Below are positions 5,263 through 62,050 of a stretch of 64,000 bases of DNA, piece after piece (positions within the stretch are counted from its first letter, which is position 1; every line of letters begins with the position of its first letter). Source of the stretch: a virus; IMG/VR virus record IMGVR_UViG_3300046167_000870. The stretch is one strand, 5' to 3'. The position numbers and the translations under genes are program-made. Below the pieces are notes generated by a model that saw only the letters and a program-made list of their open reading frames with translations, was not told the origin of the DNA and made no database searches.

Positions 5263-5955
5263 TTATATATTATGTCCTCCGTTATTAATCTTCAGACTAT
5301 CAAAAAATTCTTTTCTTGCTAAATTATCATTTTCTCTAAATACACCTGATGCTTTAGTAGTAACCATTGCTGCTCCTTGATGTTTAACTCCTCTACAGCT
5401 AACACAATTATGTGTTCCAACTATAGTAACAATTACACCTTTATTACCTTCAGTAATTTTACATACTGCATTATGGATAGCTGATGTTAATTGTTCTTGT
5501 ATTGCTCCTCTACGACCAAATAATTCAACAATTCTATTTAATTTAGATAAACCAATTACTCTACCTTCATCACCTGCTATATAACCAATATGAACTACAC
5601 CTCCAATTGTTTGGTGGTGGTGTGAACACATTGAGGTAAGAGGAATATTTCTTTCAATAATGATTCCATCATATCCATCCGAAGGAAAGGATGTTATAGG
5701 TGACATTTCAGTATATCTACCTGCCCATAAATCATTAACATAGGCTTTAGCTACTCGCATAGGAGTATCTGCTGAATTTGGATCTTGTCTCCAATCACAT
5801 TTTAATTCATCTAAAAACAAACCAAATTTATGGGCTGCTTTTACTATCATGTCTTTTTTTTCTGCATCGCTAAAAGGAAATCCTGGTGCTACACCATTTG
5901 CATAACCTTCTTGTACAACTTCTAATTCTTGGTGAATTTTTCTTCTATTGCTCAT
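5263..5955 (-). CDS. folE: GTP cyclohydrolase I
   Basis: TPMRVAK, SMCSHHH, GLSKLNR, IQEQLT, HNCVSCRG. Confidence 0.95.
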   Translation of the reverse strand: MSNRRKIHQELEVVQEGYANGVAPGFPFSDAEKKDMIVKAAHKFGLFLDELKCDWRQDPNSADTPMRVAKAYVNDLWAGRYTEMSPITSFPSDGYDGIIIERNIPLTSMCSHHHQTIGGVVHIGYIAGDEGRVIGLSKLNRIVELFGRRGAIQEQLTSAIHNAVCKITEGNKGVIVTIVGTHNCVSCRGVKHQGAAMVTTKASGVFRENDNLARKEFFDSLKINNGGHNI

Positions 5956-6079
5956 TTATATAACTTTCTAATTTATCTATTAATACTAATACTTCGTCTG
6001 GTTCCATAGTAATGGCACAACAGACATTTACATTTTCTTTTATATCATCTAATATACGAAGGGCTTCTTGCTTATCCAC
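5945..6079 (-). CDS. Small Cys-Cys protein, 44 aa, GTG start (not in ORF track)
   Basis: (M)DKQEALRILDDIKENVNVCCAITMEPDEVLVLIDKLESYINEQ; start overlaps the queE stop (TAGTG). Confidence 0.6.
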   Translation of the reverse strand: MDKQEALRILDDIKENVNVCCAITMEPDEVLVLIDKLESYINEQ

Positions 6080-6864
6080 TATACTTCTCGCTTATCTTCA
6101 AACGCAATAATATGTGGTCTCCAAGTCATTCTATAACCATTATCCCTTACCCAATCAAATAATACTGGATATGATTTAAATAAAGCTTCCCTTGAATCAC
6201 CAGCAGGCATAAACCAAACTTTTTCTGATTTAACCTCTAATTGAGCTAAACAATCCATAATTTCAGCTAATGCATCTTGATCTTTACCATCCCATACTGG
6301 TTTAATATGATAATCAGAGTGATAAGCTATTGATTGTTTAATTGCATCATAATTAAGTCTTAACTTATTATGTTGTTTTACCATTTTTTCATCTGTAACT
6401 TTTCCTTGAGGAGTAAGAGTACCAACAACGGGGACGCTATTACTAAACTTAGGAGAAATTGACAGGAGATTAATAGGATAATCAGTAGGAAGGAAATGTG
6501 ATCCTTCAGTTTCAATAGTAATGAATATATCGTTTTCATGTGCGAAGTGTGTTAATTCATTTACTAAAGCAGCATGCATAGTAGGTGAACCTCCAGTCAA
6601 CATCATTTCCTTTATATGAGGGTTTTTCTCATACATGGCAATAATATCTTTAAAGTTAAAATGACCTTTTTCTGGGTGGATACTTGTATACCAACTATCA
6701 CACCATCCACCTTCGCCAAAATAGCATCTGTGGGTGCATCCTGTTGTTCTAATAACTACTGTTGGGTATCCTGCTCTTGAGCCTTCTGATTGTACTGCAG
6801 TGTAAATTTCTACAATAGGGAGGTTTTTATCGTAATCCTCAATACGTTTCAATTGTTTGTGCAT
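6079..6864 (-). CDS. queE: 7-carboxy-7-deazaguanine synthase (radical SAM)
   Basis: EIYTAVQSEG, RTTGCTHRCYFGEGGWCDS (Cx3Cx7C), LTGGSP, IETEG, SISPK; ATG at 6864 preferred over GTG at 6897. Confidence 0.92.
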   Translation of the reverse strand: MHKQLKRIEDYDKNLPIVEIYTAVQSEGSRAGYPTVVIRTTGCTHRCYFGEGGWCDSWYTSIHPEKGHFNFKDIIAMYEKNPHIKEMMLTGGSPTMHAALVNELTHFAHENDIFITIETEGSHFLPTDYPINLLSISPKFSNSVPVVGTLTPQGKVTDEKMVKQHNKLRLNYDAIKQSIAYHSDYHIKPVWDGKDQDALAEIMDCLAQLEVKSEKVWFMPAGDSREALFKSYPVLFDWVRDNGYRMTWRPHIIAFEDKREV

Positions 6865-6906
6865 ATTGTTAATTTTTTTAAGTGGTTTTTCATTCACTAT
6901 TATAAC

Positions 6907-7371
6907 TTATTCGCTGTAATAAGCAGCGTTTTTACCGTGTTCTGCAAACTTAACTTTAATAACTCTTACTCTGTTATCAGTTTCAGTTTTAACAAAATCA
7001 TTTAATTTGTGATAAATATATTCAGCAAATTTCTCTGCGCCAGTAGCTGGAATTACTCTTACTTGTGCTACACCTGCTTTGTCCATTTGTTGAAATGCTT
7101 TTAATTCAGGATCATCTTCTGCTATAATCATAGTATGATCAAACATATAATCCATCCATGCTTTAGGAGATTTACCATCAATTAGAGTTTTAGCTCTTTT
7201 CATTCCACCAAAATCCCAAACCCAATTCCTTTCATCTAATTCACCTTCAAAATATACTTTAAAGGAAATACCATAACCATGTACAAATCTACAGTGTGTT
7301 GTTGTTGCTTTCCATTGACGAAACACTGTACTAAAACCGTCAAATACTTTACTTGATTGAAATTTACCCAT
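6907..7371 (-). CDS. queD: 6-carboxy-5,6,7,8-tetrahydropterin synthase
   Basis: HCRFVHGY, WDFG, FDH, GAEKFA; cluster context. Confidence 0.9.
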   Translation of the reverse strand: MGKFQSSKVFDGFSTVFRQWKATTTHCRFVHGYGISFKVYFEGELDERNWVWDFGGMKRAKTLIDGKSPKAWMDYMFDHTMIIAEDDPELKAFQQMDKAGVAQVRVIPATGAEKFAEYIYHKLNDFVKTETDNRVRVIKVKFAEHGKNAAYYSE

Positions 7372-7612
7372 TATACCAATTTAATATGTCTTCCCTTGAC
7401 TGATTACCAACTGTTCTCTTTATCTCATTATTACTATCATCTACTTTAATTAAAGTTGGGACTGATCTAACAGAATAATGAGCTGCTTTTTCCATATCAT
7501 TGTCAATATTTACTTTATGAATAGGAATTTCTAAACTTAACTTGTCCATTACTGGACCTAGTGCTTTACAAGGTCCACACCAAGGAGCTGTAAAATAAAT
7601 AATTTTTGCCAT
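7364..7612 (-). CDS. Thioredoxin
   Basis: WCGPC active site, SVPTL. Confidence 0.93.
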   Translation of the reverse strand: MAKIIYFTAPWCGPCKALGPVMDKLSLEIPIHKVNIDNDMEKAAHYSVRSVPTLIKVDDSNNEIKRTVGNQSREDILNWYNG

Positions 7613-7662
7613 GTTTTCTAATTTATTATTATACTAAATATACGAAACTTATTTCTAATTTC

Positions 7663-7854
7663 CTAATTACTTCCATTTTCTTTATAATCTATAAAAAATC
7701 CAATTGCTACTATTAAATTCATTCCTATGGATGCCCCAATTTCTACTAAATCGTGAAAATTATGGATAGATAAATGGATATGTCCTACAACCCAAAAAGG
7801 AATTGCTAAATTTTGACTAATCCAAATTATAAGAAATTTTAAAAAACTTTTCAT
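7663..7854 (-). CDS. Small membrane protein (63 aa)
   Basis: Start MKSFLK at 7854; two hydrophobic segments; the longer track ORF runs through tRNA-Gln. Confidence 0.65.
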   Translation of the reverse strand: MKSFLKFLIIWISQNLAIPFWVVGHIHLSIHNFHDLVEIGASIGMNLIVAIGFFIDYKENGSN

Positions 7855-7867
7855 ATTATAACTTTTG

Positions 7868-7940
7868 TTGTCCCTACAGGGGTCGAACCTATACTCTTCT
7901 GGACCAAAACCAGACGTGTTGCCAATTACACCAAGGGACA
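7868..7940 (-). tRNA. tRNA-Gln (UUG)
   Basis: Acceptor TGTCCCT/AGGGACA, anticodon arm TCTGG-TTTTGGT-CCAGA, GTTCGA T-loop; CCA not encoded. Confidence 0.93.
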
Positions 7941-7943
7941 CTG

Positions 7944-8017
7944 TGGAGAATATCGGAGTCGAACCGATGACCTCCTGCGTGCAAGGCAGGCGCTCTAGCC
8001 AGCTGAGCTAATTCCCC
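7944..8017 (-). tRNA. tRNA-Ala (UGC)
   Basis: GGGGAAT/ATTCTCC acceptor with G3:U70, CCTGC-CTTGCAC-GCAGG anticodon arm, GGTTCGACT T-loop. Confidence 0.95.
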
Positions 8018-8023
8018 TACCCT

Positions 8024-8164
8024 TTAGACGTTTCTCCATCTACGTCTATCAGACCATTGTACTTTTTTGGTCTGACCTAACATAGCTAATCTACTTACTT
8101 TCTGATTGAAAGCATTTCTGTCTTGATTTAACTGTGTGTTACCGTTTTGTTGTTCGTTGTTCAT
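8024..8164 (-). CDS. Small basic protein, 46 aa (not in ORF track)
   Basis: MNNEQQNGNTQLNQDRNAFNQKVSRLAMLGQTKKVQWSDRRRWRNV; fills the gap between queC and the tRNAs. Confidence 0.55.
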   Translation of the reverse strand: MNNEQQNGNTQLNQDRNAFNQKVSRLAMLGQTKKVQWSDRRRWRNV

Positions 8165-8199
8165 TACTAGATTGTTAAATTATAATTACATATATGTTA

Positions 8200-9045
8200 C
8201 TATACGTATTCAGCAAGCACTTTTTCGACATGAGATTTTGCTACTTCATAATCAACTACTCCAGTTTCATCTGCATAACCAACAGGATCAGGTCTTCCTA
8301 ATTTAATAAATGCTTCAATACGTTCAACACTAGAAGCTGATTTATAATCACTGTACCATTCGTATGCATTAGTTTCAGGTCTACTATAAACTTTAAGTGG
8401 TTTATAAGAAGTGTTAGTTCTAGAATAAACTTCATCAAAATCAATACCTAAAATTTCACATAACTTTTCTCCATCCTGTAGGATACCAAATTTATCAGTA
8501 TCTAAATAAGGTGTAAAGTAACCTACTCTATCTGCATCCCAATTTCCAATTCTAAAAGCTGCATCATCTGCATCTCTAAATTCTTGTCTACAATCAGGGT
8601 AAACTGCATGATCACCAGCATGGATACCTAAAGCAATATCACAAACATCTTCTGTTCTATTTGCTACAGATAATGCTACTGCTTGAGTAATTGAAGCAAA
8701 CATTTTGTTTCTATTAGGAACAACTGTTTCTTTCATATTATCTTGTTCATAATGTCCTTCTGGTACATCATCTCCTCCTTGAACTAAAGCTGAATCTAGT
8801 AAATCTACTAATCCATCTAGTTTAATTTGACGATAATTAACTGTACAACCATTAAAACAATTTTCATCTACTGGGCAGATTTTATTGATATAATCAACTA
8901 ATTGTTGAGCTCTTTCTAGCTCTACTCTATGCTTTTGACCATAGTCAAAAGATATAGCTGTTACAGAATCATACTTTTCGATAGCTCTTAACAATAGGGT
9001 GCTGCTATCCATTCCACCACTTAAACTAACTACACAATGTGCCAT
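8200..9045 (-). CDS. queC: 7-cyano-7-deazaguanine synthase
   Basis: SGGMDS, FDYGQKH, VPNRN, YPDCR. Confidence 0.95.
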   Translation of the reverse strand: MAHCVVSLSGGMDSSTLLLRAIEKYDSVTAISFDYGQKHRVELERAQQLVDYINKICPVDENCFNGCTVNYRQIKLDGLVDLLDSALVQGGDDVPEGHYEQDNMKETVVPNRNKMFASITQAVALSVANRTEDVCDIALGIHAGDHAVYPDCRQEFRDADDAAFRIGNWDADRVGYFTPYLDTDKFGILQDGEKLCEILGIDFDEVYSRTNTSYKPLKVYSRPETNAYEWYSDYKSASSVERIEAFIKLGRPDPVGYADETGVVDYEVAKSHVEKVLAEYV

Positions 9046-59084: not shown

Positions 59085-60398
59085 TTATTTTAATTTTCCT
59101 AGTAAACTCTCAGCAACATATGTACCTTGTGCACCACTTACCGTTATACCTCTAGCAGAAAGAGCATCACCAACAAAGTGGACGTTAGGATACTTAGTAA
59201 GAGCTAAATCGGAATAATCGACAAGTGGTTCAGGTGATAAGTATTTTACTTCAGGCACATAAATACCCCAATCATCTTTAAGTGTTGGGAATACTTTTTT
59301 CATGTCTTCAATAAAATCATACACATACATAAAGTATGGTTGCATTGCTTTTGATATTTTATGTAATGTATCTACTTGAATAGCTGATACATTTATACCT
59401 TCAGATGTTTGTGATGGTTTTCTACTTGGACTATAATATAATCCAGTACCATCTATCTGTAATTTTTTAACTACATCTCTAGACCAATCAAATGGTTTAT
59501 CAATACCTCTAACTTCCATTAGAATACCAAAATTGGTCATATCATTTCTGAATGATTCGTCTTTTTTAGCGTGTCCATTGTACGAATGATCTCCATACGT
59601 TTCTTCAACGGCAACATAAGCTGCGTTGTTGTTTGTACAGAATGAACGTAATGATACTCCTTTGTCTTCGAATTTACGATACAATTTGAAATCATAGCTT
59701 ACATCAATTAGTTTTTGGAAGTGTTTTTGTGGTGCTTCAAATCGAACACCTATTTGTACTGGTTTTGGTTCAGTTGGTAAATCGTATTTTTCAGCTAATT
59801 GTTTACCAAAGTCAATACCTGATTTACCTACACCAAATATAAGTTCATCATATTGAATTCCTAATTCTTCACCTCCATTTAAAATGCGAGCACGGAGATT
59901 ATTATTATCAAAGTCAATATCTTCTACTTTGGTTTCCCATAAGAATTCTACGCCACCATTAACTAAAAAGTCATACCAATTTTTACCTATTTCATGTAGA
60001 TAATCTGTACCAACGTGCCATACTGGAAATAATCTTAATCCAAAATAGGGTTTAATAAATTCTGGTTCTGCTATTGGATTTGAACATTGTACTTCTTCTG
60101 GTTTAGGGTGGAAACGTTTAAAATTATCAATCACCTGATCAAACAATTCCATTGCTTTTTCTTCACCACAATATTTAGATAATTGTCCTCCAATTGAAGT
60201 ATGGTAAGTTAATTTACCATCAGACCAACCTCCTGCACCTAGGAAGCCTGTCATTACTTCTTCATATGGTCTTAAATATGGGTCTTTACCCATATCAATT
60301 ATGGTAATTTTACCTTTAAAACCATTGTCAATTAGCTTAGTAGCAGCATTTACATTTGCTACACCTGCTCCAATCATTACTACATTTTTACTCACCAT
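59085..60398 (-). CDS. FAD-dependent oxidoreductase
   Basis: IGAGVA, GFLGAGGWSDGKL, GVRFE, RSFC, FVGDA. Confidence 0.85.
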   Translation of the reverse strand: MVSKNVVMIGAGVANVNAATKLIDNGFKGKITIIDMGKDPYLRPYEEVMTGFLGAGGWSDGKLTYHTSIGGQLSKYCGEEKAMELFDQVIDNFKRFHPKPEEVQCSNPIAEPEFIKPYFGLRLFPVWHVGTDYLHEIGKNWYDFLVNGGVEFLWETKVEDIDFDNNNLRARILNGGEELGIQYDELIFGVGKSGIDFGKQLAEKYDLPTEPKPVQIGVRFEAPQKHFQKLIDVSYDFKLYRKFEDKGVSLRSFCTNNNAAYVAVEETYGDHSYNGHAKKDESFRNDMTNFGILMEVRGIDKPFDWSRDVVKKLQIDGTGLYYSPSRKPSQTSEGINVSAIQVDTLHKISKAMQPYFMYVYDFIEDMKKVFPTLKDDWGIYVPEVKYLSPEPLVDYSDLALTKYPNVHFVGDALSARGITVSGAQGTYVAESLLGKLK

Positions 60399-60543
60399 AA
60401 AATCTATTTAAAGTATTATACATTCCTGCTACTCCAAAACTAGCACCGTGTTTTTTGTTTTGTTCTAAAAAAAACATCATTAATCTTTGAAATGAATTAC
60501 CTTCATTTTGTTTTACTAAGTAGAATTCTTTATCTATATTCAT
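60388..60543 (-). CDS. Small protein, 51 aa (not in ORF track)
   Basis: MNIDKEFYLVKQNEGNSFQRLMMFFLEQNKKHGASFGVAGMYNTLNRFYGE, downstream of the promoter motif at 60567. Confidence 0.55.
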   Translation of the reverse strand: MNIDKEFYLVKQNEGNSFQRLMMFFLEQNKKHGASFGVAGMYNTLNRFYGE

Positions 60544-60580
60544 TTGTCATTTATTTTTAACACGTTAATATACGAACTAG

Positions 60581-60606
60581 AAATGGCGTCTCCTAGGGAG
60601 ACGCCA
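60581..60606 (-). terminator. Strong hairpin / probable terminator
   Basis: TGGCGTCTCC-CTA-GGAGACGCCA-TTT. Confidence 0.7.
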
Positions 60607-60662
60607 CAGATGTCTGTTTTTTTTTTAATTAATTTCGACTGGCTATGAATCAGTCTATATGT

Positions 60663-60728
60663 TTAACAATGACAGCATGTACAGTTACATGATACTCCAC
60701 ACCCGCATGTTTTACAATTACATTTCAT
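60663..60728 (-). CDS. 21-aa Cys-rich metallothionein-like peptide (not in ORF track)
   Basis: MKCNCKTCGCGVSCNCTCCHC: 9 Cys in 21 aa; ATG one base after the cupin stop. Confidence 0.7.
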   Translation of the reverse strand: MKCNCKTCGCGVSCNCTCCHC

Positions 60729-60729
60729 T

Positions 60730-60975
60730 TTAATTTATTTTTATTTTTAAATCGGTTGTCCCTTTATGTATTCTATGGACATCTCCTTCGTTAATAAATA
60801 TACGATCTCCCTTTACTAATTCCAAGGGTAATTTATTATCTAGTTGAACTTTCCACCCTTTACCTTCTAATACTTCAATTTCTCTATCTTCTTTATCTTG
60901 ATGCCAAACCAATTCCATTGAATCAACATCTTTTGAAAACATTCTAATATTACCTTTATTTGTGTATGGGTTCAT
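60730..60975 (-). CDS. Cupin-domain protein
   Basis: WHQDKEDREIEVLEGKGW...GDRIFINEGDVHRI. Confidence 0.8.
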   Translation of the reverse strand: MNPYTNKGNIRMFSKDVDSMELVWHQDKEDREIEVLEGKGWKVQLDNKLPLELVKGDRIFINEGDVHRIHKGTTDLKIKIN

Positions 60976-60976
60976 C

Positions 60977-62050
60977 CTACCAAAATGTATTCATGTTAGC
61001 ACCTAGACCTAATTGGCTTGCATATCTTGGTAATCTACAAGACCAGTATCCTGGTTTGGTTCTATCTGTTTTTTCTTTACATCTATGTCGTTTAGCAAAT
61101 GCATTTCTTGCTTTAGAGTTTCTAATCTTAGCTCTTAAACCACCTGATCCAAATGATACTTTTTTAACTTTTTTAGTTTTAGGATCTCTTACATAAACAT
61201 AATATGCTTTAGAACCACCTCTTTTTGGTTTTCCAATTGGTGGATCTTTTTTCTTTTTCTTAGCTTTTTTAGCTTCATTTAATGATATTAAACTTGTTGG
61301 AATATAAGCATTAGTTCCATCACCAAATTCAACATGAACTCTTTTATCATTTTTATCTAAGATATAAACTTGTTCTTTTTCTCCTGCTTCAAAAGATTCA
61401 AAGTCATCATCATACCCTTCACCGGTATTCATTTTAACTTCATAATCATTTTTGAAAGTGATTATTGCTTTACCTTCATTTAACATATTGTCTATTTCAT
61501 CACGAACCCAATCTTTTTCATTTGAACCTAATTGATCATAATCCATACCAAATTCTTCATTTGCTATTTCATCTTCTATATCCATTTGTTCATTAATACC
61601 TACTAAATCTCTTTTATTCCAAATTTTAGATTTGTTTTCGTCACTACAATCTTTAAAATCACAATCAAATTCTTTATGTGCTATTAAGTCTAATCTATCT
61701 TCTTCTTCATGACTTAATTTTCTACCCTTATATTCAGTAGCTTCTCTTATCATAGGTAAATCTAAAGGTATAATCTGGTTTTTATATAAATCAAATTCAC
61801 CTAAATGTGTTTTCATTAATCCTTCATCTTCTTCACATAAATCAAGTACGCCACGTGAATATAATTTTCTTGCTTCTTTAATCATGGATAAATGAGCATC
61901 AGAACCAATTCTGAATACATTTTCCATTAATGAGATGTTATTGTCAATATGATAAGATAAGTTTTCAGATATAAGTTTTTTAACTTTACCTTCAGTTAAG
62001 AGTGGTCCTCTTATTGTTTCACAAGTATTACATCCACATTTTTGACACAT
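60977..62050 (-). CDS. Probable virion-associated protein with basic C-terminal domain
   Basis: CQKCGCNTC N-terminus, repeated L/I-x-E sites, KKVSFG...FAKRHRC...PGYWSC. Confidence 0.6.
   Translation of the reverse strand: MCQKCGCNTCETIRGPLLTEGKVKKLISENLSYHIDNNISLMENVFRIGSDAHLSMIKEARKLYSRGVLDLCEEDEGLMKTHLGEFDLYKNQIIPLDLPMIREATEYKGRKLSHEEEDRLDLIAHKEFDCDFKDCSDENKSKIWNKRDLVGINEQMDIEDEIANEEFGMDYDQLGSNEKDWVRDEIDNMLNEGKAIITFKNDYEVKMNTGEGYDDDFESFEAGEKEQVYILDKNDKRVHVEFGDGTNAYIPTSLISLNEAKKAKKKKKDPPIGKPKRGGSKAYYVYVRDPKTKKVKKVSFGSGGLRAKIRNSKARNAFAKRHRCKEKTDRTKPGYWSCRLPRYASQLGLGANMNTFW

Follow-up and report, generated by a model that had tools for sequence, protein, structure and literature searches.

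A nine-cysteine micro-gene conserved in marine phages may encode a very short metallothionein-like peptide

The DNA analysed here (the window) is a 64,000 nt stretch of IMG/VR virus record IMGVR_UViG_3300046167_000870, with a G+C content of 31%. It contains 67 long ORFs, all on the minus strand and running in one direction. The large terminase encoded in the window and that of Flavobacterium phage vB_FspM_immuto share 60% identity, on which basis the window is assigned to an uncultured T4-distant myophage, whose host most likely belongs to the marine Bacteroidota. The genes and signals considered below are listed in Table 1. The central one is a micro-gene with nine Cys codons, which starts 1 nt past the stop codon of a gene for an 81-aa cupin-like protein, here called the mini-cupin, and is the last cistron ahead of a terminator-like hairpin. 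A gene for an FAD-dependent oxidoreductase follows on the same strand.

Table 1. Positions of the genes and signals discussed in the text
Feature	Position	Strand	Remarks
7-deazaguanine cluster	5263-9045	minus	FolE, QueE, QueD, thioredoxin, tRNA-Ala, tRNA-Gln, QueC
Radical SAM gene QueE	6079-6864		in FolE-QueD-QueE-QueC-thioredoxin cluster
COG2509-like FAD-dependent oxidoreductase, 437 aa	59085-60398	minus	best solved structure 3nlc_A, E 0.001
51-aa ORF	60388-60543	minus	between promoter and FAD oxidoreductase; overlaps oxidoreductase start
-7/-10 box (CGTATATT plus AA)	60565-60574	minus	kept after terminator in aligned loci
Intrinsic-terminator-like hairpin	60583-60607	minus	11-bp stem, 7 G-C pairs; loop and 3' arm hold TAGGAG
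hp1 hairpin, 19 nt	60637-60655	minus	5-bp covarying stem; 9-nt loop AUUCAUAGC, invariant (partly by construction)
Nine-Cys micro-gene	60663-60728	minus	ATG start; 21 codons and TAA stop
Mini-cupin gene, 81 aa	60730-60975	minus	weak Pfam Cupin_2 match, E 0.004, below curated cut-off
Promoter-like site in cupin coding sequence	60795-60825	minus	-33-like TTGG at 60822-60825; -7 box TATATTTA at 60795-60802
357-aa protein	60977-62050	minus	N-terminal C-x2-C-x-C-x2-C motif; no Pfam family

The first-pass annotation had described the micro-gene as a 21-aa ORF with nine Cys in CxC and CC motifs and one His, and it is present exactly so. Cys accounts for 43% of the predicted peptide (9 of 21 aa) with the spacing C-x-C-x2-C-x-C-x3-C-x-C-x-C-C-x-C, and the His is at position 20. 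When 200 Markov-simulated 64 kb windows that retained the dinucleotide content of the original were searched for ORFs of 10–40 aa, not one (0/200) contained an ORF with nine or more Cys, and ORFs with at least seven Cys occurred at just 0.04 per simulated window. Chance does not account for the nine-Cys ORF, which is almost certainly a genuine gene.

Viral contigs were searched with a degenerate DNA pattern that spans eight of the nine Cys codons, and at least 119 contigs matched. Among the matches listed, 128 in all, there were 72 distinct peptides, all of 19–23 aa, in which the Cys pattern and reading frame are kept together with the start and the stop, as expected if the ORF first noticed in the window encodes a peptide. 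Conservation was counted over the 64 distinct 66-nt genes among the matches listed. The Cys spacing is invariant across them, and four positions that the pattern does not force are also kept: an ATG at codon 1 (64/64), Ser13 (62/64, encoded by TCA, TCT or AGT), the ninth and last Cys (64/64; TGT in 37 and TGC in 27) and a stop codon immediately after it (64/64). Lys6 and Gly11, like Ser13, are strongly conserved in the same genes, and the spacer positions are mostly occupied by N, D, T, S, K, G, E, V or I. His20 was found in only 2/64 genes, one of which is that of the window. Thus, of the Cys and His make-up originally pointed out, the nine Cys are conserved and the His is not a conserved ligand. 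None of the 72 distinct peptides listed includes F, W or Y, and the first Cys is preceded by 0–3 residues. The peptides of the family therefore have polar spacers and end in Cys, and they lack both aromatic residues and a signal peptide. Several of the 25 loci that carry a relative of the mini-cupin have the same micro-ORF after it, with changes that are synonymous or conservative and with every Cys retained. Related DNA totalling 2.15 Mb contained no decayed copies of the micro-gene, and the other Cys-rich short ORFs in it are hydrophobic singletons, bar one six-Cys family. The closest cultured relatives, vB_FspM_immuto and Methylophilales phage Melnitz, do not contain the peptide pattern. 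A tblastn comparison of the peptide with 50,697 phage records yielded no match, probably owing to the low-complexity filter.

The micro-gene falls within a predicted transcript of ~210 nt whose 3' end is a conserved structured element (see below), so the region might be merely a small RNA or part of a 3' untranslated region in which the reading frame is incidental. Selection at the amino acid level makes this scarcely credible: TGT and TGC interchange for Cys, TCN and AGT for Ser, and the start and stop are kept amid unrelated sequence contexts. The start context is also favourable. Among 73 distinct start contexts, A is found at -3 in 85%, at -6 in 70% and at -12 and -13 in 81–84%, while A is at -3 in 53% of the window's long ORFs. 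The micro-gene in the window has A at all four positions. In Flavobacterium johnsoniae, whose phylum dispenses with Shine-Dalgarno sequences, A at these positions was measured to be a positive determinant of translation (PMC6847099).

Upstream of the micro-gene, the mini-cupin has retained the residues W-H-x-D-x-E-D-R and H-R-x-x-K-G in an alignment with its relatives. The motif CGTATATT is present in 13 copies in the window, all on the minus (coding) strand, compared with 1.7 expected, usually at a fixed distance after T(T/A)GGA. One copy (60797-60804) is within the cupin gene, with TTGGAA (60820-60825) 17 nt upstream of it. The Bacteroidetes sigma-A promoter consists of a -33 element, TTTG, and a -7 element, TANNTTTG (PMC6847099), and CGTATATT, read as TATATT(T/A)A, fits that -7 element, accompanied by a TTTG-like -33 element. 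The elements inside the cupin gene are TTGG and TATATTTA separated by 19 nt, for an expected Bacteroidetes spacing of about 19–20 nt, and several relatives have a perfect TTTG at the -33 position, 19 nt upstream. The predicted transcription start is near 60790. The embedded -7 copy encodes a conserved R-I-F-I strand of the cupin, and nearly all of the cupin homologues with this strand use CGT for the Arg and ATA for the Ile, which make up 13% of Arg codons and 37% of Ile codons in the window, respectively. As the retention of these rare codons represents nucleotide conservation beyond coding need, a Bacteroidetes-type promoter is likely to be embedded in the cupin gene. The promoter-like motif was seen in cupin homologues at about 70 loci, at 40–100% identity.

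The first-pass annotation had assigned this promoter to the micro-gene. The motif is backed by codon-level conservation, but it belongs to the cupin gene. In 34/112 loci the cupin gene is followed directly by the hairpin hp1 with no peptide gene between them, and in 22 of those 34 a -7-like box lies 73 nt before hp1. As the motif is present with or without the peptide gene, we conclude that the promoter is a property of the cupin gene. At the peptide-less loci, the embedded promoter would give a short RNA ending in hp1 and the terminator.

The hairpins downstream were likewise examined across phages. hp1 begins 7 nt past the stop codon of the peptide. At least 120 viral contigs contain its exact sequence, with one copy at each locus, and it is single copy in the window. 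An FAD oxidoreductase gene on the same strand follows hp1 in 116/116 loci with enough downstream sequence, usually about 100–125 nt after the hp1 start. An alignment of 33 module copies, from loci fetched without the exact 19-mer and located by the conserved loop motif, has 100% of cells paired in the 5-bp stem and compensatory changes in 4/5 pairs; the invariance of the loop in this alignment arises partly by construction, because the loop was used to locate the copies. The covariation score was 0.69, against 0.19 in shuffles, with 0/500 shuffles as high, and it collapses once the pairing register is slid. No Rfam family for hp1 or the region was identified, with chance-level matches only, and the loop motif is not enriched in genomes of the host genus (two matches versus one control match). 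The inner seven bases of the loop resemble an anticodon loop with the anticodon CAU. Two other identities for these elements were considered and rejected. A palindromic DNA operator does not explain an hp1 with a covarying stem and an invariant loop, and a generic mobile intergenic cassette comparable to the T4-type promoter-stem-loop does not explain a combination of hp1, terminator and promoter that is single copy and always found before the FAD oxidoreductase.

The order of the module is hp1, an A-rich spacer, the terminator hairpin and a promoter. Intrinsic terminators have a G+C-rich stem and then a U-run, and here the stem is evident in the window and the U-run comes from most relatives, as the tail in the window is T-poor and weaker than theirs. 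The homologous terminators start with CTGTGGC, and in most relatives a run of 8–9 T follows the hairpin. The TAGGAG in the loop and 3' arm corresponds to a -33/-35-like element of the next promoter, and this promoter, with its -7/-10 box at 60565-60574, would drive the 51-aa ORF and the FAD oxidoreductase. The 51-aa ORF is shared with some relatives and is absent in most; two (L118 and L133) have ORFs of similar size in the same place, and in two more (L155 and L207) homologous coding sequence lies directly before the oxidoreductase start. The oxidoreductase itself is about 25% identical to the 'NAD(FAD)-utilizing dehydrogenase' of Campylobacter phages.

Module and peptide gene are frequently found apart. 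In 91/112 module copies, hp1 and the terminator have no Cys peptide directly upstream, and 102/128 of the matches listed have the nine-Cys ORF without the hp1 module. The terminator therefore belongs to a conserved structured RNA/terminator/promoter module that is tied to the FAD oxidoreductase. The strong hairpin that had been interpreted as the micro-gene's own terminator is real, but given the 116/116 linkage to the FAD oxidoreductase, the hairpins are not the peptide gene's own. A more accurate description is that the peptide gene is flanked by a cupin-embedded promoter on one side and, on the other, by the RNA module that precedes the FAD oxidoreductase. The predicted promoter and terminator signals would fit a transcript of ~210 nt running from about 60790 to about 60578.

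Cys-responsive attenuators formed by poly-Cys leader ORFs occur in mycobacteria. As in these leaders, the ORF in the window is very short, dominated by Cys codons and upstream of another gene, and the local anatomy of a Cys-rich ORF, a hairpin 7 nt past its stop, a terminator and a gene would suit a Cys-sensing leader peptide in which stalling at the nine Cys codons controls read-through of the terminator into the FAD oxidoreductase. We consider this very unlikely. The separation of hp1 and terminator from any Cys ORF in most module copies argues against it, and so do the many loci, and the chromosomes, in which the ORF has no hairpins and lies 2–11 nt ahead of unrelated genes. There is a separate promoter beyond the terminator, no alternative antiterminator pairing is apparent, and the ORF and a terminator/antiterminator do not form the single conserved unit ahead of a regulated gene that characterizes an attenuator. 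Unlike a leader, which needs neither, the nine-Cys family has kept its non-Cys residues and exact length as well as its exact spacing, in many contexts and with downstream hairpins that are independent of it.

The surroundings of the peptide gene were surveyed in 100 non-redundant loci. The mini-cupin is directly upstream in 25/97 loci, separated from the peptide gene by -14 to +1 nt. About one locus in five encodes a Lys-rich protein of ~300 aa upstream and a 163-aa protein 11 nt downstream; the latter is conserved, contains two CxxC pairs in the representative sequence, and follows the peptide gene at this distance in 17/76 loci. A 130-aa membrane protein is upstream in a further arrangement, found in 11 loci. 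Metal-responsive regulators or transporters were not found adjoining the micro-gene. There is no obligatory neighbour, and the flanking genes vary by lineage. Four peptide-bearing IMG/VR contigs (L160, L179, L190 and L197) are 53–92 kb and were rated by CheckV as only 10–33% complete, and three of them (L160, L179 and L197) have the order Lys-rich protein, peptide, 163-aa protein. From their size and low estimated completeness, very large (jumbo) phages probably also carry the micro-gene.

Three further observations concern the neighbourhood. The C-terminal domain of the 357-aa protein (K-P-K-R-G-G-S-K ... V-S-F-G) recurs in 44 peptide loci, either upstream or downstream. A second micro-ORF family, of 28–29 aa with six Cys as well as hydrophobic and aromatic residues, starts with M-K-E-K-I-C and ends with K-C-C-x; it is unrelated to the nine-Cys gene and fills the same slot before hp1 in other phages (seven distinct variants, at about 2430-2520 in L009 and also in L003, L006, L008, L012, L057, L063 and L089). 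Finally, variable genes directly after the cupin gene share the N-terminus M-D/E-N-F-D-L-R/K-K-Y-L-A-E, followed by unrelated sequence, and are sometimes in tandem (L003, L005-L008, L011, L012, L014-L016, L024 and L025). The region after the cupin gene looks like a hot spot for gene replacement.

When a strict pattern was used to search one genome per species from 185,579 cellular species, matches were found in two uncultured Flavobacteriaceae, one SAG and one MAG of 1.4–1.6 Mb. A relaxed pattern returned 5/27 genomes of the same uncultured genus, in which genomes are 1.1–1.9 Mb, and no further genome among 401 sampled from the family. The five chromosomal copies (L255-L259, in genomes G001, G002, G403, G404 and G414) are in ordinary surroundings at sites that differ in each genome, and their downstream ORFs are mutually unrelated. 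In three of the five (L256, L258 and L259) the micro-gene adjoins a tRNA gene. Small hydrophobic or lipoprotein ORFs were seen directly 3' of the chromosomal copies. Neither the mini-cupin nor the FAD oxidoreductase is near any of them. A TANNTTT(G/A)-like box, resembling the -7 element, is found 4–6 nt before the ATG of each, and from this spacing the chromosomal copies look nearly leaderless; most F. johnsoniae transcripts have leaders (PMC6847099). As copies are found both in phages and in the chromosomes of 5/27 genomes, the family is common to phages and a probable host lineage. Thus, nine-Cys peptides are a large unannotated family in uncultured marine phages and one small-genome genus of the Flavobacteriaceae, and the micro-gene works without a fixed partner gene.

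Peptides with Cys-rich cores are known among RiPPs, for example the SCIFF/ranthipeptides, and epidermin is processed with the flavoprotein EpiD. The nine-Cys peptide is similarly small and Cys-rich with a C-terminal Cys, a flavoprotein gene is near it in the window, and the first-pass annotation had offered a RiPP-like precursor as an alternative, citing the neighbouring cupin and oxidoreductase and a radical SAM gene. The peptide would then be a precursor or substrate of the FAD oxidoreductase or cupin, with, for example, oxidative modification of the C-terminal Cys, which is invariant. The oxidoreductase starts within 130 nt downstream of the peptide gene in 29/76 loci, a placement commoner than chance, and within 3.5 kb in 12 more, and the six-Cys micro-ORF is found at the corresponding place ahead of this enzyme. 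However, about half of the peptide loci have no FAD oxidoreductase nearby, and it was not found on the four contigs of 53–92 kb, which are fragments. In most hp1 module copies no Cys peptide directly precedes the oxidoreductase, the peptide gene is set apart from the oxidoreductase by a terminator and a further promoter, and the chromosomal copies have neither enzyme nearby. RiPP precursors consist of a leader or follower and a core and are encoded with a conserved modifying enzyme. The nine-Cys peptide has no leader region, its stop codon directly follows the last Cys, and no maturase is conserved beside its gene. The flavoprotein in the window differs from EpiD in being COG2509-like, not of the HFCD type, and in having its own promoter. 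The cited radical SAM gene is QueE of the 7-deazaguanine pathway, 54 kb away, and the other cited neighbours are absent at many copies. The identity and distance of QueE weaken both this reading and that of a leader peptide. As two unrelated Cys-rich micro-ORFs occupy the same slot, a role as substrate or partner of the enzyme is kept as an account of low probability.

A further explanation is that the peptide is a small metal-dependent or thiol effector and not a buffer, either a Zn-knuckle-like modulator of a host or phage protein or a redox/thiol carrier. Possible partners are the coupled mini-cupin or, in other phages, the 163-aa Cys-containing protein that follows. Apparent translational coupling to the mini-cupin, the two CxxC pairs of the 163-aa protein and the strong conservation of Lys6, Gly11 and Ser13, which suits a defined fold or interface, are in keeping with such a role, and the nine Cys could equally hold one structural metal site for binding a partner protein. 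Nevertheless, no one partner recurs throughout the family, the genes beside the chromosomal copies are unrelated, and the composition is typical of metallothioneins. We regard an effector as unlikely, though less so than a RiPP-like precursor.

Metallothioneins are recognized by a low mass, a very high content of Cys in CxC, CC and CxxC motifs, and no or very few aromatic residues and His, and the nine-Cys peptides have all of these properties. When five family members were compared with the Pfam metallothionein families (Metallothio, Metallothio_Pro and others), there was no match at E values up to 10. Among solved structures, the sole match was to the wheat Ec-1 metallothionein (2kak), which at E 3.4 is not significant. 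A search of the literature found no description of a phage metallothionein or a nine-Cys family, and the top matches for bacterial metallothionein families were only to SmtA-type, Pseudomonas and MymT-type proteins.

The closest parallels are in composition. The beta-domain of mammalian metallothioneins has nine Cys in about 30 aa of a 61-aa protein and forms an M(II)3Cys9 cluster. The nine-Cys peptides resemble it in having nine Cys, mostly as CxC, in a short polar segment with no aromatic residues, and on this likeness about three divalent ions would be expected. They differ from it in their length of 19–23 aa, in being encoded by a separate gene, in the CC doublet and C-terminal Cys, and in sharing no detectable homology. 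The Cu-metallothioneins of the fungi Neurospora crassa and Agaricus bisporus, of about 25 aa with seven Cys, are to our knowledge the shortest metallothioneins known. These are also single-domain, gene-encoded peptides that consist of little but CxC motifs and small polar residues, but they are eukaryotic and have seven Cys in place of nine with other spacing, and even they are longer than the phage and flavobacterial peptides. The metallothioneins of bacteria have 50–80 aa, a fold like that of a zinc finger and His ligands that are conserved. SmtA/BmtA, the Pseudomonas metallothioneins and MymT have in common with the nine-Cys family that they are prokaryotic, Cys-rich and metal-binding or predicted to be so, but they are larger and use His ligands, while the nine-Cys family has no match to Metallothio_Pro and its His is not conserved. 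The Pseudomonas fluorescens protein forms a Zn3Cys9His cluster (PMC7387436).

A metallothionein-like role, as proposed in the first-pass annotation, is the best fit to the composition and context of the peptide, and a stand-alone metallothionein-like metal-thiolate peptide is the best supported function, one that we hold with about even confidence on the strength of these analogies. The proximity of the FAD oxidoreductase and the presence of the six-Cys ORF in the same slot hint at a link to the enzyme that the metallothionein-like reading does not explain. Under that reading, a metal-thiolate cluster would organize the fold of the peptide in the reducing cytoplasm, and the nine-Cys domains of metallothioneins suggest that the cluster would hold about three Zn(II) or Cd(II) ions or several Cu(I) ions. 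The gene would be of host type and phage-borne, and its product would buffer or donate metal on its own in the course of infection. In the window, the micro-gene would be translationally coupled to the mini-cupin as the last cistron of a unit that ends at the terminator, and the peptide is probably also made from the ~210-nt transcript begun at the cupin-embedded promoter.

Taken as a whole, and somewhat more tentatively than its functional core, we propose that the nine-Cys peptides (19–23 aa) are the shortest known family of gene-encoded metallothioneins, an auxiliary metal-handling gene of many lineages of marine phages, T4-like and probably jumbo phages among them, that is shared with one streamlined genus of the Flavobacteriaceae. 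Here the gene would lie on a ~210-nt transcript from a promoter hidden in a cupin gene, and the same RNA would also carry a conserved anticodon-loop-like hairpin that may have a function of its own. The locus illustrates that neighbouring modules, in this case an embedded promoter and the RNA element of the next gene, can mimic a self-contained gene. As standard gene callers skip genes so short, the family is invisible in the annotation of phages and marine bacteria, though it is common in contigs of uncultured marine phages. If the peptides do bind metal, the smallest gene-encoded metallothioneins would be smaller than those known so far, the functions that ocean phages bring to infected Flavobacteria would include the handling of trace metals (Zn, Cu, Cd), and the family would be relevant to trace-metal cycling in the turnover of algal blooms.
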